A stretch of 44,664 nt of DNA from a phage. Under the pieces are notes generated by a model. It was not told the DNA's origin. It worked only from the letters and a program-made list of their open reading frames with translations, and searched no databases. Positions 11,385-43,220 of the stretch are shown in pieces (the first letter of the stretch is position 1; every line of letters starts with the position of its first letter). The stretch is taken from sequence record OZ077758.1. One strand, given 5' to 3'. A program made the position numbers and the translations under genes.

Positions 11385-11387
11385 TGA

Positions 11388-11516
11388 AGCGGGACAGGCG
11401 GGACGTCCCGTTTTGTCCCGCCCCTGCAAAACTGCATACCTATTCACTTCCACCGCATAAACTCAAAACGGGACAAGCGGGACGTCCCGTTTTGTCCCGC
11501 CCCTGAAAGGTGCATA
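11388..11516. repeat. two direct copies of a 36-bp GGGAC palindromic element
   Basis: GGGACA(G/A)GCGGGACGTCCCGTTTTGTCCCGCCCCTG at 11391..11426 and 11470..11505 (one mismatch); each contains the 12-bp perfect palindrome CGGGACGTCCCG and 8-bp inverted arms GGCGGGAC / GTCCCGCC. Confidence 0.8.
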
Positions 11517-11540
11517 ACTATTCTAATTTCGTGCATAAAG

Positions 11541-11712
11541 TAAGCGGGACAAAAAGCGGGACAGACAAGGGGCGGGACAAAACGGGACAGCACCCCGTCC
11601 CCGCCAGTGCTGCCGCGGTTTTCAGCCGATCGGGACAGCGGGACAGCACCCCAGTCTTTCAGACTAGACGGGGGTCATCGGCCCCCCTCGTCTGAGACTG
11701 AATAAGGTTTGT
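11541..11712 (+). repeat. GGGACA iteron array plus conserved double-hairpin element (copy A)
   Basis: four GGGACA repeats at spacing 12/16/10, a 34-bp variable block, two more GGGACA, then hairpins AGTCTTTCAGACT and AGACGGGGG..CCCCCCTCGTCT; near-identical to 39596..39772. Confidence 0.8.
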
Positions 11713-36559: not shown

Positions 36560-36589
36560 ATAATAGATTGGTTGCAGGATGGGTGTCAA
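36560..36589 (-). promoter_or_regulatory. strong sigma70-like early promoter (leftward)
   Basis: minus strand TTGACA - 18 bp - TATTAT with GCAACCAAT in the spacer next to the -10. Confidence 0.55.
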
Positions 36590-36600
36590 CAACTAATTTC

Positions 36601-36635
36601 AAAAAAAAAAGCGCCGAGGCAAAATGCGACGGCGC
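36601..36635 (-). terminator. rho-independent terminator (minus strand) insulating divergent early region
   Basis: + strand A10 followed by GCGCCG-N13-CGGCGC; on minus strand this is a hairpin followed by T10. Confidence 0.6.
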
Positions 36636-36706
36636 TAACCAATAAGAGACAATGAGACGGGAATTATTATTACACGCGTGCGCGCCCGTTTCAATATCCA
36701 AAGGAT

Positions 36707-36753
36707 TTGACACCGTGCGGTTTTGGGTGTAGTTTCGTTGGTCATTAACCAAC
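36707..36753 (+). promoter_or_regulatory. rightward early promoter with palindromic operator at transcription start
   Basis: TTGACA (36707..36712) - 17 bp - TAGTTT, followed by palindrome GTTGGT-CATTA-ACCAAC (36737..36753) and RBS GAGGG. Confidence 0.5.
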
Positions 36754-36766
36754 TGAGGGCAGAGCA

Positions 36767-37096
36767 ATGAATGTAAACGACGCAATCGAAATGTTAACGA
36801 AGACTGTTTGCAGTGAGACAAGCCGGTCATGGGCATACACCGATGCCGTGGGGGCTGTGTTATTTGAAATCGAACGACTGCGGCTTACCGAAAAAGAATT
36901 GCGCGCCAGGCTGGAACTACTCAACGGTACAGCAGCAAGCAAGCTGCAAAAACACAATGAAGAAATGGAAGAATACAAAAAGCAGGTTATCCGTTTGCGC
37001 GCCGAGGGTAAATCATGGGCGATGATTGCCGAGTTGACCGGAATTAATCAGAGCACAGTGCGCTCCTGGGTACGCAATAATAAAACTTCTAAGTAA
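36767..37096 (+). CDS. helix-turn-helix DNA-binding protein (putative regulator)
   Basis: 109 aa; C-terminal HTH-like KSWAMIAELTGINQSTVRSWVRNN; first gene of rightward early operon. Confidence 0.6.
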   Translation: MNVNDAIEMLTKTVCSETSRSWAYTDAVGAVLFEIERLRLTEKELRARLELLNGTAASKLQKHNEEMEEYKKQVIRLRAEGKSWAMIAELTGINQSTVRSWVRNNKTSK

Positions 37097-37106
37097 GGCC
37101 ACGGCA

Positions 37107-39323
37107 ATGAGCTTGATTAAATTCGCTGTAACAAAACCCGCTAAAAAAGGCGAAAAAGCCAGGGCGGAGAACTTCCAGATGACGACCGATGAGTTTTTCG
37201 AATTTATCAAAGATGCGAAAGAAATCTCCTCGGTGCATATCAACAAGACGGAAGATAAAGCCGAGTATGCGCGCCGCAAGCGTAAGGCCGATGGCATCGT
37301 GGCGTATACCAGTGACGGATTGCGTCGTAAGACCAGTGCGGTGGACCGCTCGATCCTGTTCTTTGATATTGACCGCACCGACACCCGCACCCTGCGCCGC
37401 TGCCGTAAGGCGTTCATCGACGCGGGTCTGGAACACGTATTTCACACCACCACCGGCGACCGCCACCCGCTGAAGGGCGGCACGCGTTGCGCCCGTTTCC
37501 TGGTGCTCACTGACAAGCCTGTACCGGCTGAAGACCTGGGCCGCGTCCAGTATGCACTATTACACCAACTGGGTCTGTCAGATGTGGACTTCGACGATTG
37601 CACGAAAGACACAAACCGCCTGATGTACCTGCCACACCAGCAGTCCGTTATTAAGTGCCACTATGGCAAGCGCGCCAATGTGCGTCGTCTACTCCGTCGG
37701 GCGGACAAGCTGGGGGTGGAAAAAGAGGAAGTACGACGCGAACTGACCCAGGGCGATGACGGCGTGGCGGACGGTATTCTGGATTGGTGCTTCCAGGCAG
37801 GATTCGAACCGCTGTCGTCCGGTCGTGGCTATGAAGTACCGTGCCCGAACGAACACCTGCACAGCGGCGAAGGGTCCACCGCGATCATGGTTAAGGATGG
37901 CGAGATCCGTTTCAAGTGTATGCACACCGGCAACGAGTGTTGCTCGGAACTGAACAGACACCAGCACCTGGCGCTACGTCTTATCGGTATCCCGGACCAC
38001 CTGAACGTAGAACCGCACAACATGTCACGTAAGCAAATTGCCGCCATCCTCCCCGGACTGGACGACGAGGAAGTGGAATCGTGCTATGAACATATCGTTG
38101 ATGCGGTCGGTGACGGCGACGAGTACGGCGGATGTACGGACGCAGACCTGGACAACGAGCCGGTTGCACTGTTCAGTAAGCACGACCCGATCATCGAGGG
38201 GTTGATTAACTTCAAATCGACCTGGTATATGGCTGGCGAATCGAACATCGGTAAATCGTTCTACGTGCTGGGACAAATGGGCGCGGTTGCCGCGGGGATT
38301 CCGTTCGGTGGTGCGAAGGTAGTCCAGTCTCATTGCTTCTATTTCGACGCGGAAGGTGGCGAAGCCTCCAACCAGCGTAAGGAAGCATTGCAGATCAAAT
38401 ATGAGCACGACCTCGACAAGCTGCACATTATAGACCTGCAATCACGCGGCTGGGATATCACCAGCAAATCCGGCTTGCGTGAAGTTATCAGCTTTATCAA
38501 CCGCACCGCTAACGGCGAACCGGTTGGCCTGGTGGCGTTCGACTCACTCAACCAGACTGTTGCGCTGCGGTCCGCCGATGCTAAGCCGTTCGACGAGAAC
38601 AACGCCAGCGATATGGGTGAAGTGGTCAAGGCGCTGAAGGCCATCGCGGAAAATACAGGCGGCAGTGCGGGCGTCATCCACCACCCGGCTAAAGGTGCGA
38701 ACGGCAGCAGAACGCCACGCGGGTCCGGCGCGCTTCATGGTGCTGTTGATTCCGCGTTCTTCCTGGAGCAACCGGACGACAACCAGCCCGGACAATTGAA
38801 CCTGTACCATGAGAAGGCACGTAACGGCATCAAGCAAGCGCCGCGCGGATTCGTCCTTCTCAAGTGCAAGGTTAAGGTGGATCTCCGCAAGTCCGAGGCG
38901 TTCGAAGCCCACCAGTCCACCAGCACCGGGCCGGACTTCGGTGATGTGGTTGCCGGTTGGGACGTCAAGCCAATTGCCTCCACGCCACGCGACGAGACTC
39001 TTTACCTCGTACCGGTCGCCCTGGCACCGTTCGCTATTGAACAGGCGAAGGCCGCGGGCAAGGCCGCAGTTAAGGAAGAGAACGCCGCGGGGCCGCGCAA
39101 CGAAAAAGAGAAAGTGCTTTATGCGGCACTGGAAAAACTGATGGAAGATAACCCGGACCATACCGGATTCAGTAAATCGGCAATTGTCCGCCAGGCTGGA
39201 CTGGCAAAAGGTGGCACATCGACGAAGGCAATCGACGATATGGTAGAGCGCGGAGTGTTAGGTTTTTATACCGATCCGCACAAAAAGGTGGCACATCGAC
39301 GAAGGCAATCGACGATATGGTAG
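37107..39323 (+). CDS. bifunctional DNA primase (AEP-type) / helicase, C-terminus altered by tandem duplication
   Basis: 738 aa; N-terminal AEP-like motifs (LFFDIDRTD, TTTGDRHP), Cys/His cluster, C-terminal RecA-fold ATPase with Walker A GESNIGKS and Walker B VAFDSL; reading frame is shifted by a 77-bp duplication near the 3' end. Confidence 0.75.
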   Translation: MSLIKFAVTKPAKKGEKARAENFQMTTDEFFEFIKDAKEISSVHINKTEDKAEYARRKRKADGIVAYTSDGLRRKTSAVDRSILFFDIDRTDTRTLRRCRKAFIDAGLEHVFHTTTGDRHPLKGGTRCARFLVLTDKPVPAEDLGRVQYALLHQLGLSDVDFDDCTKDTNRLMYLPHQQSVIKCHYGKRANVRRLLRRADKLGVEKEEVRRELTQGDDGVADGILDWCFQAGFEPLSSGRGYEVPCPNEHLHSGEGSTAIMVKDGEIRFKCMHTGNECCSELNRHQHLALRLIGIPDHLNVEPHNMSRKQIAAILPGLDDEEVESCYEHIVDAVGDGDEYGGCTDADLDNEPVALFSKHDPIIEGLINFKSTWYMAGESNIGKSFYVLGQMGAVAAGIPFGGAKVVQSHCFYFDAEGGEASNQRKEALQIKYEHDLDKLHIIDLQSRGWDITSKSGLREVISFINRTANGEPVGLVAFDSLNQTVALRSADAKPFDENNASDMGEVVKALKAIAENTGGSAGVIHHPAKGANGSRTPRGSGALHGAVDSAFFLEQPDDNQPGQLNLYHEKARNGIKQAPRGFVLLKCKVKVDLRKSEAFEAHQSTSTGPDFGDVVAGWDVKPIASTPRDETLYLVPVALAPFAIEQAKAAGKAAVKEENAAGPRNEKEKVLYAALEKLMEDNPDHTGFSKSAIVRQAGLAKGGTSTKAIDDMVERGVLGFYTDPHKKVAHRRRQSTIW

Positions 39324-39359
39324 AGCGCGGAGTGTTAGGTTTTTATACCGATCCGCACA
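39206..39359. repeat. perfect 77-bp tandem duplication
   Basis: 39206..39282 and 39283..39359 are identical (AAAAGGTGGCACATCGACGAAGGCAATCGACGATATGGTAGAGCGCGGAGTGTTAGGTTTTTATACCGATCCGCACA). Confidence 0.9.
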
Positions 39360-39457
39360 CCGGGGCCATATATGGGTCGTCGAATATCGTCATCAAAACG
39401 AATATACCCATCACGCTTTCGGCGACCGATGACGACCTGAAAGATTAATTTGTGCGC

Positions 39458-39560
39458 GTATTGGTTGCCGATATGGGAATTCCCATATCGCTAAAAGATT
39501 AAATTTTGCGCGCATTGGTTGCCATTTTGGGTGTTTTTATCAGGTCGTATTGGTTGCCGT
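39458..39560. promoter_or_regulatory. three spaced ATTGGTTGCC sites plus 20-bp perfect palindrome
   Basis: ATTGGTTGCC at 39460..39469, 39514..39523 and 39549..39558; GATATGGGAATTCCCATATC palindrome at 39470..39489. Confidence 0.6.
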
Positions 39561-39595
39561 GTAGTGTGATTATTATGAATAGTTATGCAATAAAA

Positions 39596-39772
39596 CTGCA
39601 TAAAACAAACGGGACAAAAAGCGGGACAAACAAGGGGCGGGACAAAGCGGGACAGCACCCCCGTCCCGCCCCGGATGACGCGGCCTGGAGAGGAGCGGGA
39701 CAGCGGGACAGCACCCCAGTCTTTCAGACTAGACGGGGGTCAGTGGCCCCCCTCGTCTGAGACTGAATAAAA
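39596..39772 (+). repeat. GGGACA iteron array plus conserved double-hairpin element (copy B)
   Basis: same architecture as 11541..11712; flanks nearly identical, central 34-bp block diverged at about half the positions with length conserved; preceded by AT-rich segment 39565..39610. Confidence 0.8.
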
Positions 39773-39925
39773 TCCGGGGATTGCAAAATACACGGCAGCA
39801 TGATGCGAAGTGCGGTCGTAGGTGAACTAGGCAACCAATGCGAGTTGCATTATGCGAAGTGAAAAATGCAGTTTGCAGTCACAGCGGATAGCGATCAACT
39901 TTTTCATGCGCGTGATTAATATTGG

Positions 39926-39954
39926 TTGCACCCCGCCTGGCACCCTGCTATATT
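39926..39954 (+). promoter_or_regulatory. sigma70-like promoter
   Basis: TTGCAC - 17 bp - TATATT, built from two ATTGGTTGCAC copies; leader GGTTGCACACCAACATGAGGA also found at the moron promoter. Confidence 0.5.
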
Positions 39955-39982
39955 GGTTGCACACCAACATGAGGACTGAACG

Positions 39983-40288
39983 ATGAAAGCGATTATCTGG
40001 AATTACGCATTAGCCGTGGCAAAGCTGTACGAAGCGAAACACACAAACGGCAACGCAGACGAAGCGCGCGAGGTCGTCATCCTGACCCAGCAGGCAATCA
40101 TGGACGCGTTCGACGATATGTTTGCCAGCCTGGACGAACTGGAACCGCTGCGTGTGGCAATCTGCGAATATGCGATGGCATTTGCCCGTGAGCGCCTGGC
40201 GTATCGTTTCGGGATCGGCGATAAGGCAGTGACAAACGTCGCCCGGATTAAAGCCCAGCGCGAACTATTCGCGCAGCTTGCGAAATAA
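39983..40288 (+). CDS. hypothetical protein
   Basis: 101-aa ORF with RBS GAGGA. Confidence 0.55.
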   Translation: MKAIIWNYALAVAKLYEAKHTNGNADEAREVVILTQQAIMDAFDDMFASLDELEPLRVAICEYAMAFARERLAYRFGIGDKAVTNVARIKAQRELFAQLAK

Positions 40289-40297
40289 GGGGCCAAA

Positions 40298-40567
40298 ATG
40301 GGCCGTAGACGAGAAAAACAGCTTTCGTGGCATATTCCCCTGCATTGCATACGAATATGGGCTAAGAATGCGGTTGAGGGCGATTCTGTGTTCTGGTGCT
40401 ATCGAGACGACGTAAAGCCACTGACGCAGACTCGCTACTTGCACCAGTTCGCAGCACAACACGATTTCAGGGTGCGGACTTCCTTGCAACCAATGGGAAT
40501 ACGTATTACATTACGCCGGAAGCCCGCCATTGAGCGGGTAGGCAAACACTGGAGACTGAGCAGATGA
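40298..40567 (+). CDS. hypothetical protein
   Basis: 89-aa Arg-rich ORF. Confidence 0.4.
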   Translation: MGRRREKQLSWHIPLHCIRIWAKNAVEGDSVFWCYRDDVKPLTQTRYLHQFAAQHDFRVRTSLQPMGIRITLRRKPAIERVGKHWRLSR

Positions 40568-43190: not shown

Positions 43191-43220
43191 TTGACTTGCA
43201 ACCAACTATCGGCCCATACT
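43191..43220 (+). promoter_or_regulatory. sigma70-like promoter
   Basis: TTGACT - 18 bp - CATACT with TGCAACCAA in the spacer. Confidence 0.4.

Follow-up and report, generated by a model that had tools for sequence, protein, structure and literature searches.

The closest analogue in logic to the sites described here is the operator/stoperator system of mycobacteriophage L5 and its protein gp71 (Brown et al., 1997, as cited in PMC11447400). The sites lie in a stretch of phage DNA of 44,664 nucleotides (OZ077758.1), the whole of which was analysed and is called the window below. They are copies of an asymmetric motif of 9-10 bases (9-mer, ATTGGTTGC; 10-mer, ATTGGTTGCC). As in L5, the site is short, asymmetric, multi-copy, mostly intergenic and co-oriented (15 copies; 16/21 copies of the core intergenic; 12/15 co-oriented), one class of sites lies over -35 elements (that of the early promoter in L5), and a single phage protein is proposed for all copies. 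L5 is a temperate phage with gp71 as immunity repressor, whereas the window has no lysogeny module and its genus, Dhillonvirus, is described as lytic. The sequence of the site also differs, and many copies in the window are inside core promoters, in both orientations.

T1/TLS-like phages carry a 21-nt intergenic direct repeat, aaATAGCACnnnTTGnTAAAA, which was compared by its authors to stoperators, enhancers or UP elements (PMC11447400). Drexlerviridae are the sister group of Dhillonvirus (PMC8594841), and the two repeats are alike in being genome-wide, co-oriented and intergenic in related virulent siphoviruses that use the host RNA polymerase. The T1/TLS repeat differs in sequence and length and is placed ~76 nt upstream of start codons; overlap with -35 or -10 elements was not reported for it, and no binder was proposed (PMC11447400).

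Further systems share parts of the arrangement. T4 MotA boxes, too, are phage-specific 9-mers that stand in for a poor -35 and keep a set distance to a good -10, which in the window applies to 6/15 sites, and a promoter feeding an AT-rich segment recalls T4 oriF/oriG, where a middle promoter is combined with an unwinding element. Unlike in T4, no MotA or AsiA domain (Pfam) was detected in the 21 proteins scanned, and other copies of the motif are reversed, in spacers or over -10 hexamers. Lambda OR/OL resembles the proposal made here in that one regulator has several neighbouring sites, may bind them cooperatively and may activate or repress depending on their position. The lambda operators are 17-bp dyads over divergent promoters beside repressor genes, whereas the sites of the window are asymmetric, 9-10 bases long and directly repeated; their number and spacing vary among relatives, two of which (L129 and L202) have them inverted, and the candidate regulator gene is 2.4 kb upstream. 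Also unlike lambda, a consensus scan found no promoter in 39300-40100, and a weak -10-like hexamer follows site 3 alone. In phi29, one small DNA-binding protein, p4, represses strong early promoters and activates a promoter without a good -35, as is proposed here; p4 acts at one control region, whereas the present sites are genome-wide, and the proteins are unrelated as far as tested. Like the present locus, the P4 alpha ori/crr and SaPI ori lie at a primase-helicase 3' end, have direct repeats next to AT-rich DNA and are matched by a related cis region elsewhere. They differ in that the repeats common to both regions of the window are CGGGACA and TGCATAA, and ATTGGTTGC is dispersed over promoters. 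A literature search found nothing on Dhillonvirus promoters, transcription control or this motif, and searches with the raw motif and with SO-1 'region B' were unproductive.

The cluster downstream of the primase-helicase gene

Matches to the 1.2 kb surrounding the cluster came from 162 phage records, nearly all Escherichia/Shigella Dhillonvirus. The best of them was JLBYU60 (93% identity), with which the window is collinear. By tblastn, 62 JLBYU60 proteins were collinear across the whole window, which starts inside the small terminase gene; judged by this order, the window is therefore a near-complete genome of a Dhillonvirus, that is, an HK578/SO-1-like virulent (lytic) siphovirus of E. coli. 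No immunity or integration module (integrase, repressor) is present in the annotation of JLBYU60. Minus-strand genes (replication, modification) occupy 23.9-36.5 kb, and the remaining genes are read rightward from a divergent control region at 36.5-36.8 kb. AAA_25 was the sole Pfam domain of the primase-helicase, and sequence searches of the PDB with this protein and with the helix-turn-helix (HTH) family described below gave no useful relatives. The features around the 3' end of its gene are as follows.

37107-39448 (+): primase-helicase gene, interrupted by a 77-bp tandem duplication in the window; stop codon at 39446-39448; 3' end adjoins the cluster
39437-39490 (no strand): 54-bp indel relative to most Dhillonviruses, composed of a ~32-bp tandem duplication of AAAGATTAAATTTTGCGCGCATTGGTTGCC and a 22-bp insert bearing the palindrome
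39460-39469 (+): site 1, ATTGGTTGCC, a lineage-specific copy within the 54-bp partial duplication/insertion
39470-39489 (no strand): 20-bp perfect palindrome GATATGGGAATTCCCATATC with a central EcoRI site, abutting site 1, in the same insertion
39514-39523 (+): site 2, ATTGGTTGCC, with conserved TTTTGCGCGC just before it
39549-39558 (+): site 3, ATTGGTTGCC, the sole cluster copy invariant in all forward-arrangement Dhillonvirus loci
39830-39839 (-): reverse ATTGGTTGCC on the far side of region B, invariant in 7 genomes and in the forward-arrangement IMG/VR loci

A sequence-only reading of the window had pointed to three repeats and a 20-bp perfect palindrome with an EcoRI site, placed between the primase-helicase gene and a GGGACA locus. 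Both the elements and their position were confirmed. The cluster starts 12 bp 3' of the stop codon, which ends at 39448, and ends ~50 bp 5' of six GGGACA copies (39611-39705); its 9-mer ATTGGTTGC occurs in 15 exact copies in the window, against ~0.34 expected. The 10-mer ATTGGTTGCC has four copies in all, every one flanking the GGGACA element. Together with two further copies at 39921 (+) and 39952 (+), the 534-bp intergenic region holds 6 of the 15 exact 9-mers, the densest local concentration of sites.

GATATGGGAATTCCCATATC was found once in the window and had no match in 100 shuffles; by our own arithmetic ~0.04 perfect palindromes of 20 bp are expected in 44.6 kb. As single-stranded DNA it folds into a hairpin of -8.2 kcal/mol. 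An intrinsic terminator was considered and rejected, because the hairpin is followed by GCTAAAAGATT and not by a U-run, and none was called there by a terminator scan. That scan, run over 39300-40100, gave no terminator-like site between the primase gene and the next operon. The palindrome recurs in many unrelated phage and prophage contexts, among them the DNA preceding hokD and KilA-N genes, in which it is read in frame as DMGIPIS; these occurrences indicated no function.

The whole intergenic region was aligned for seven genomes, and the comparison was extended by 15 IMG/VR loci, all Dhillonvirus-like (L numbers below denote individual loci). Across the seven genomes site 2, site 3, the reverse site and both promoter sites do not change and the DNA between them drifts, and site 1 and the palindrome are confined to the 54-bp segment of the lineage of the window and JLBYU60. 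The boundaries of this segment are ambiguous because of the tandem repeat, the ~32-bp duplicated unit of which comprises the primase stop codon region and site 2. Coverage of 39436-39530 was at least 80% in ~90 of 155 phage records. Site 1 is absent from YD-2008.s, BS4, EK99P-1, WFI and SO-1 and is changed to ATTGGTCGCC in L201 and L193; site 2 reads GTTGGTTGCC in SO-1 (L195) and ATTGGTCGCC in L193 and is deleted in L190. Site 3 is present in every IMG/VR locus with the forward arrangement. The sequence of Ioannina seems to have arisen by deletion.

Among these genomes, exact copies of the palindrome are confined to the window, JLBYU60 and L189. In L196, L199, L201 and L193 it carries mutations in one arm (AATATGGGAATCCCC..., GGTATGGG..., ...GGGGATTCCC...) without compensation. 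A role as a conserved operator of the genus was rejected on these grounds, and the part given to the palindrome in the operator layout by the sequence-only reading is withdrawn: from the alignments it is a lineage-specific, decaying insertion.

Across the genus the number of post-primase sites is 1 to 3, with spacings of 54/35 or 32/35 bp, or 35 bp alone. A different arrangement was found in L129, an ENA contig of a more distant relative (HTH protein 62% identical to that of the window), and in L202. Both have one forward copy of the motif inside the primase 3' end and two reverse copies, 16 bp apart, directly upstream of a conserved GAATAGTTATGCA block. L129 keeps the -10-like AATAGT and has a new -35, TTGCAA, with a 16-bp spacer, between the two reversed sites. 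The presence of the motif is thus conserved and its orientation is not, which fits sites for a protein that overlap a promoter, as opposed to a fixed promoter hexamer or a structural DNA element. Since site 1, site 2 and the palindrome vary, the arrangement of three sites plus palindrome is a derived, lineage-specific state; on the alignments, the constrained element is site 3 with the block downstream of it.

The motif on predicted promoters

Nine of the 15 exact copies are at loci other than the 534-bp intergenic region, mostly on promoters, and six other Dhillonviruses have 13-17 exact copies at syntenic places (Ioannina, 17 against 0.52 in shuffles). Intergenic DNA makes up 8% of the genome and contains 16 of the 21 copies of the core TTGGTTGC (binomial P = 4e-14). 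With up to two mismatches allowed, 33 copies were counted in intergenic DNA against 9.8 in shuffles. By our own reading of the gene map and contexts, 12 of the 15 exact copies face the way transcription runs locally. Site pairs are spaced by 9, 12, 13, 16, 17, 31, 35 or 54 bp, with no helical phasing, and the dyad TTGGT-N5-ACCAA is formed only by some copies elsewhere.

These counts bear on the reading of the post-primase sites as stoperators, in which a regulator bound to the co-oriented copies would halt elongating RNA polymerase, like gp71 at the stoperators of L5, replace the missing terminator and insulate region B. The site is asymmetric, multi-copy, intergenic and mostly co-oriented, 39300-40100 has no terminator-like site, the sites start 12 bp past the stop codon, and relatives of the T1/TLS group have an analogous co-oriented intergenic repeat that was likened by its authors to stoperators (PMC11447400). 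However, most copies elsewhere are on promoters and not at gene ends, two of the three post-primase sites are reversed in L129 and L202, a single site is left in some phages, and the phage itself is virulent, its annotation showing neither an immunity nor an integration module. A roadblock of this kind is considered unlikely.

Overlap with predicted sigma-70-type promoters took two forms. In class A, the forward motif supplies a poor -35 (TTGCAC, TTGCAT, TTGCTG, TTGCAA or TTGCCG) 16-18 bp before a -10-like hexamer, which is TATATT in three cases. A -10-like hexamer at this distance from the TTGCNN of the motif was found for 6 of the 15 exact sites against a background of 3.6% (P = 9e-6), namely those at 39921, 26976, 29918, 21904, 39549 and 5793, of which the last (AAAAAT, abutting a start codon) is probably spurious. 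In class B, the motif lies in either orientation in the spacer, the -10 or the +1 of promoters that already have good hexamers. Four promoters called by the consensus scan contain the motif (5827-5799, 33570-33542, 36589-36560 and 43191-43220). The promoters concerned are as follows.

36560-36589 (-): predicted promoter TTGACA-N18-TATTAT of the leftward early operon, 11/12 consensus matches, the best in the genome
33570-33542 (-): class B promoter TTGACC-N17-TAGATT, two motif copies
5827-5799 (-): class B promoter TTGCAA-N17-TATATT, two motif copies
43191-43220 (+): class B promoter TTGACT-N18-CATACT, motif inside
25081-25048 (-): class B promoter TTGCAA-N18-TATCTT, read by eye
39921-39960 (+): predicted promoter of the downstream operon, -35 TTGCAC (39926-39931) from the motif at 39921, 17-bp spacer, -10 TATATT (39949-39954)
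39554-39583 (+): putative weak promoter P_B, -35 TTGCCG (39554-39559, in site 3), N18, -10 AATAGT (39578-39583)

In the promoter at 36589-36560 the motif (36567-36575) is in the spacer and reversed relative to the promoter. In the downstream-operon promoter a second copy, at 39952, lies across the -10 and +1 and creates the dyad TTGGT-N5-ACCAA; the sites of this promoter are invariant and its spacer is variable in the seven-genome alignment. The same dyad is at the starts of the transcripts predicted at 39952 and 5793. P_B is directed into region B. It matches the consensus at 8/12 positions, which is below the threshold of the scan that called no promoter in 39300-40100. Its -35 and the sequence TGAATA(G/A)TTATGCA are conserved and its spacer is variable. 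Neither site 1 nor site 2 is followed by a -10 at the spacing of a promoter. The motif is found on promoters of replication, lysis and structural operons alike, and therefore follows no simple temporal logic.

A pure promoter box would account for part of this pattern: ATTGGTTGC would be a phage-specific extended -35 or UP-type element used, in the style of a MotA box, by the host RNA polymerase with a phage co-factor, and the three post-primase copies would act as weak promoters in tandem and not in repression. The fixed distance to a -10 at 6/15 sites, the co-orientation of 12/15 sites with transcription, the pairing of poor motif-derived -35 hexamers with near-consensus TATATT and the resemblance of the HTH of the candidate protein to sigma region 4 are in its favour. 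Against it stand the reversed copies within the spacers of promoters whose own -35 is TTGACA, TTGACC or TTGACT, the second copies over -10 and +1, sites 1 and 2 with no -10, and the reversal of the post-primase sites in the L129 lineage; the scanned proteins include no MotA or AsiA domain. This explanation was judged improbable.

Region B and the recurrent record end

The sites border a segment of unusual composition, which contains or adjoins the following features.

39525-39624 (no strand): AT-rich trough, richer in AT than the rest of the region, 34-38% GC against ~54% for the genome, between the sites and the GGGACA repeats
39597-39770 (+): region B element, 174 nt, in which CGGGACA is repeated six times, with GGGAC/GTCCC hairpins and, at 39716-39765, a long hairpin
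39881-39882 (no strand): recurrent record end, where BMA1, PTXU06 and WFI start and Pandora71 and SP1 end

Region B is 87% identical to a second element, region A (11532-11705), which lies 28 kb away between the tail chaperone and tape-measure genes. The CGGGACA spacing is identical in the two, the TGCATAA repeats are shared as well, and region A has no ATTGGTTGC. Both regions are annotated as repeat regions in the GenBank record of SO-1. The predicted RNA fold of region B was better than that of shuffles (z = -4). Rfam gave no match at gathering scores for the whole window, nor at E <= 1 for 39400-40000. The RNA stems are conserved, and clear compensatory changes were not evident when the sequences were inspected by eye.

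The anatomy is origin-like. ATTGGTTGCC could be an iteron beside an AT-rich segment for unwinding, placed where the gene of the initiator (the primase-helicase) ends, with region A as a second cis site: direct repeats lie beside the 34-38% GC trough directly downstream of the primase-helicase gene, a similar element is found 28 kb away, and both regions are flagged in the SO-1 record. Against this, 9 of the 15 exact copies are at other loci, mostly promoters, region A is devoid of ATTGGTTGC, and the number and orientation of the sites are not conserved. GC skew tracks gene orientation, gives no signal at 39.5 kb and is uninformative on where replication starts, and the CGGGACA repeats common to regions A and B are better iteron candidates. 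A role of the sites as iterons is quite improbable.

At least five independent Dhillonvirus GenBank records begin or end at 39881/39882, ~40 bases past the reverse site. The recurrence suggests that this point is a probable packaging (pac) cut or physical terminus, and the ends point to packaging at least as much as the AT-rich stretch and repeat region point to an origin. One relative, Opt-212, has been predicted to package by the headful mechanism (PMC9022532), whereas a report on another claims cos ends at a different place (PMC10673088). That the sites themselves belong to a pac region recognised by the small terminase would agree with these record ends and with the prediction for Opt-212. 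It is very unlikely, given a motif that is on promoters genome-wide, a cluster that is 320-420 bp from the end, a terminase small subunit without a recognisable match, and the cos ends claimed elsewhere in one report (PMC10673088). The element that is bracketed by the four ATTGGTTGCC copies may serve as replication origin, pac region or non-coding RNA gene, or combine several of these roles.

Candidate regulator and proposed mechanism

According to the sequence-only reading, no repressor gene was evident near the cluster. A candidate is encoded in the same operon.

36767-37096 (+): candidate regulator of 109 aa, directly upstream of the primase-helicase gene and first gene of the operon that ends with it
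36707-36735 (+): predicted promoter of this gene, TTGACA-N17-TAGTTT, followed by a conserved TTGGT-N5-ACCAA

Among the ~21 proteins scanned, a subset of the ORFs, this is the only recognisable HTH DNA-binding protein, the ~20 others showing no DNA-binding domain. HTH_23 (2e-7), HTH_28 and Sigma70_r4_2 (2e-6) were above the Pfam cut-offs over residues 65-105, and NCBIfam gave sub-threshold matches to ECF-sigma region 4 and to the HTH domains of IS630/IS1 transposases. Databases label the protein 'transposase', 'Gam' or 'HTH protein'. Its family consists of 24 clusters, all from Dhillonvirus-like contigs. The C-terminal 60 aa, with the HTH and its recognition helix (GKSWAMIAELTGINxSTVRSWVRN), are invariant in 15/15 aligned members, and in several lineages unrelated sequence has been swapped in for the N-terminal ~45 residues. 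In an AlphaFold (AF2) model (pLDDT 85) a 59-residue helix runs into the HTH, and the modelled HTH superposes at ~1 Å on the DNA-binding domains of LuxR/GerE/NarL, resolvase, sigma-4 and IstA.

The protein and the motif co-occur in every genome examined, and the constancy of both the recognition helix and the motif would fit, though not prove, the 109-aa protein as the binder. The HTH class is generic, being common to IS630/IS1 transposases, and the protein could instead be a replication or packaging accessory; equally, any of ~20 small ORFs without a recognisable domain could encode the real binder. A host factor in place of a phage protein is highly improbable. It would suit the indirect link between HTH protein and motif, but SO-1, whose recorded host is Sodalis, has kept the motif as well, and a phage HTH with an invariant recognition helix accompanies it in every genome examined. 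To our knowledge, no E. coli regulator has the consensus of the motif.

The reading preferred here, rated slightly more probable than not, is that ATTGGTTGC(C/A) is the operator of a global transcription regulator of the phage, most probably the 36767-37096 protein, that site 3 is the core of the post-primase cluster, and that the cluster serves the control of region B. At class A sites the protein would bind over the weak -35 (TTGCNN), 16-18 bp before a good -10, and help RNA polymerase; at class B sites it would bind in the spacer, -10 or +1, in either orientation, and occlude RNA polymerase. Site 3 would be the conserved core over the -35 of P_B, from which transcription would be read into the AT-rich segment and region B, and sites 1 and 2 would be dispensable upstream helper copies. 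Bracketing region B, sites 1-3 and the reverse site at 39830-39839 would control the transcription that enters it from the unterminated primase operon and from P_B, and site 3, with sites 2 and 1 as optional helpers, would also meet polymerase leaving that operon. The low consensus score of P_B, the missing -10 hexamers of sites 1 and 2 and the spread of the motif over operons of all kinds count against this reading.

A more specific proposal for the same protein is that it is a stand-alone surrogate of sigma region 4 that retargets the host RNA polymerase, the cluster being a regulator-dependent promoter that fires a transcription-activated origin, a packaging start or both. The variable N-terminal module would grip the host target and be joined by the long helix to the sigma-4-like HTH. 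RNA polymerase would be sent to the ATTGGTTGC promoters and blocked at others, in a MotA/AsiA-like 'sigma appropriation' that would have evolved independently in a small virulent siphovirus. This was rated distinctly unlikely.

The operator-like character that was first assigned to the cluster is supported, in that the site is genus-conserved, intergenic and overlaps promoters. A local tripartite unit is not supported, the motif being genome-wide and its post-primase copies varying from one to three and flipping in orientation. Motif and cluster would together be an undescribed but conventional object, the operator set of a phage regulator.

Dhillonviruses are among the most frequently isolated coliphages and are included in the BASEL reference collection for phage-defence work. 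The presence of one 9-base motif on most predicted promoters, together with a candidate regulator that is now mislabelled 'transposase' or 'Gam' in databases, provides a concrete and cheaply testable model of their regulatory circuit. Promoters, an insulator and a probable genome end would be offered as handles for engineering. The post-primase intergenic region is a hub, where predicted sites for a regulator are found together with one of two copies of a repeat element and a recurring physical end.

Duplication in the primase-helicase gene and a dispersed repeat

Towards its 3' end, the primase-helicase gene contains a perfect 77-bp tandem duplication (39206-39359), which was not present in JLBYU60, the best-matching Dhillonvirus relative, when the two were compared. 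Because the duplication shifts the frame, the open reading frame stops at 39323 and codes for 738 aa, versus 754; the final 54 residues are left out of frame, coded up to 39445. Two explanations are an error of assembly and a genuine truncating variant.

A 174-nt dispersed repeat was found at two sites, with 87% identity between the copies; a further pair of segments goes with it:

11532-11705, copy of the 174-nt repeat, in the gap separating the tail chaperone gene from the tape-measure gene
39597-39770, copy of the 174-nt repeat, 3' of the primase gene
11387-11429 and 11466-11508, additional pair of segments

The two copies are labelled 'region A' and 'region B' in the SO-1 record. The repeat contains six identically spaced CGGGACA motifs, and it also has TGCATAA repeats and forms a long hairpin. 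RNA folding gave z = -4, and no match to the 174-nt repeat was obtained in Rfam. The repeat may be an origin, a pac site or an ncRNA.

Palindrome in other genomes

Identical copies of the 20-bp palindrome (39470-39489) occur in at least 120 IMG/VR contigs (loci L007-L187), in at least 23 unrelated contexts ranging from 21% to 66% GC. In one such context, found in 634 of 5426 complete E. coli genomes, it precedes hokD in lambdoid prophages; in another, within diverged KilA-N genes, it is read in frame as DMGIPIS. A degenerate-codon scan yielded mostly the palindrome itself or a form mismatched at one central position, a hint of conservation at the DNA level.

Probable packaging cut or genome end, and antisense motif copy

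At least five GenBank records of Dhillonvirus genomes, independent of one another (BMA1, PTXU06, WFI, Pandora71 and SP1), have their start or end exactly at 39881/39882. The break falls inside a conserved sequence, between AAATGCAGTTTGCAGTCA and CAGCGG, with the terminase genes ~5 kb downstream. It probably marks either a cut made in packaging or a physical end of the genome.

An exact copy of the proposed operator motif ATTGGTTGC was located at 40486-40494 on the minus strand, antisense within a small gene (40298-40567). It is kept at the syntenic position in JLBYU60, WFI and Ioannina, and may be a site of internal or antisense regulation.

Divergent early control region and HTH protein

Within the divergent early control region, a transcript of ~55 nt was predicted on the minus strand (36601-36694), running from a promoter-like site to a hairpin with a T10 run:

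36694-36666, minus strand, leftward promoter-like site, TTGAAA-N17-AATAAT with TG upstream
about 36611-36636, minus strand, hairpin GCGCCG...CGGCGC followed by a T10 run, faced by the promoter-like site

The hairpin and A/T run are kept in all aligned Dhillonviruses, and the element is possibly a small RNA or attenuator.

The family of the HTH protein, the candidate regulator (36767-37096 and homologues P0011-P0024), is modular. Its 60 C-terminal residues are invariant and ~45 N-terminal residues are swapped for unrelated sequences between lineages, a pattern that, from sequence comparison, would fit an N-terminus acting as a swappable partner-binding module.
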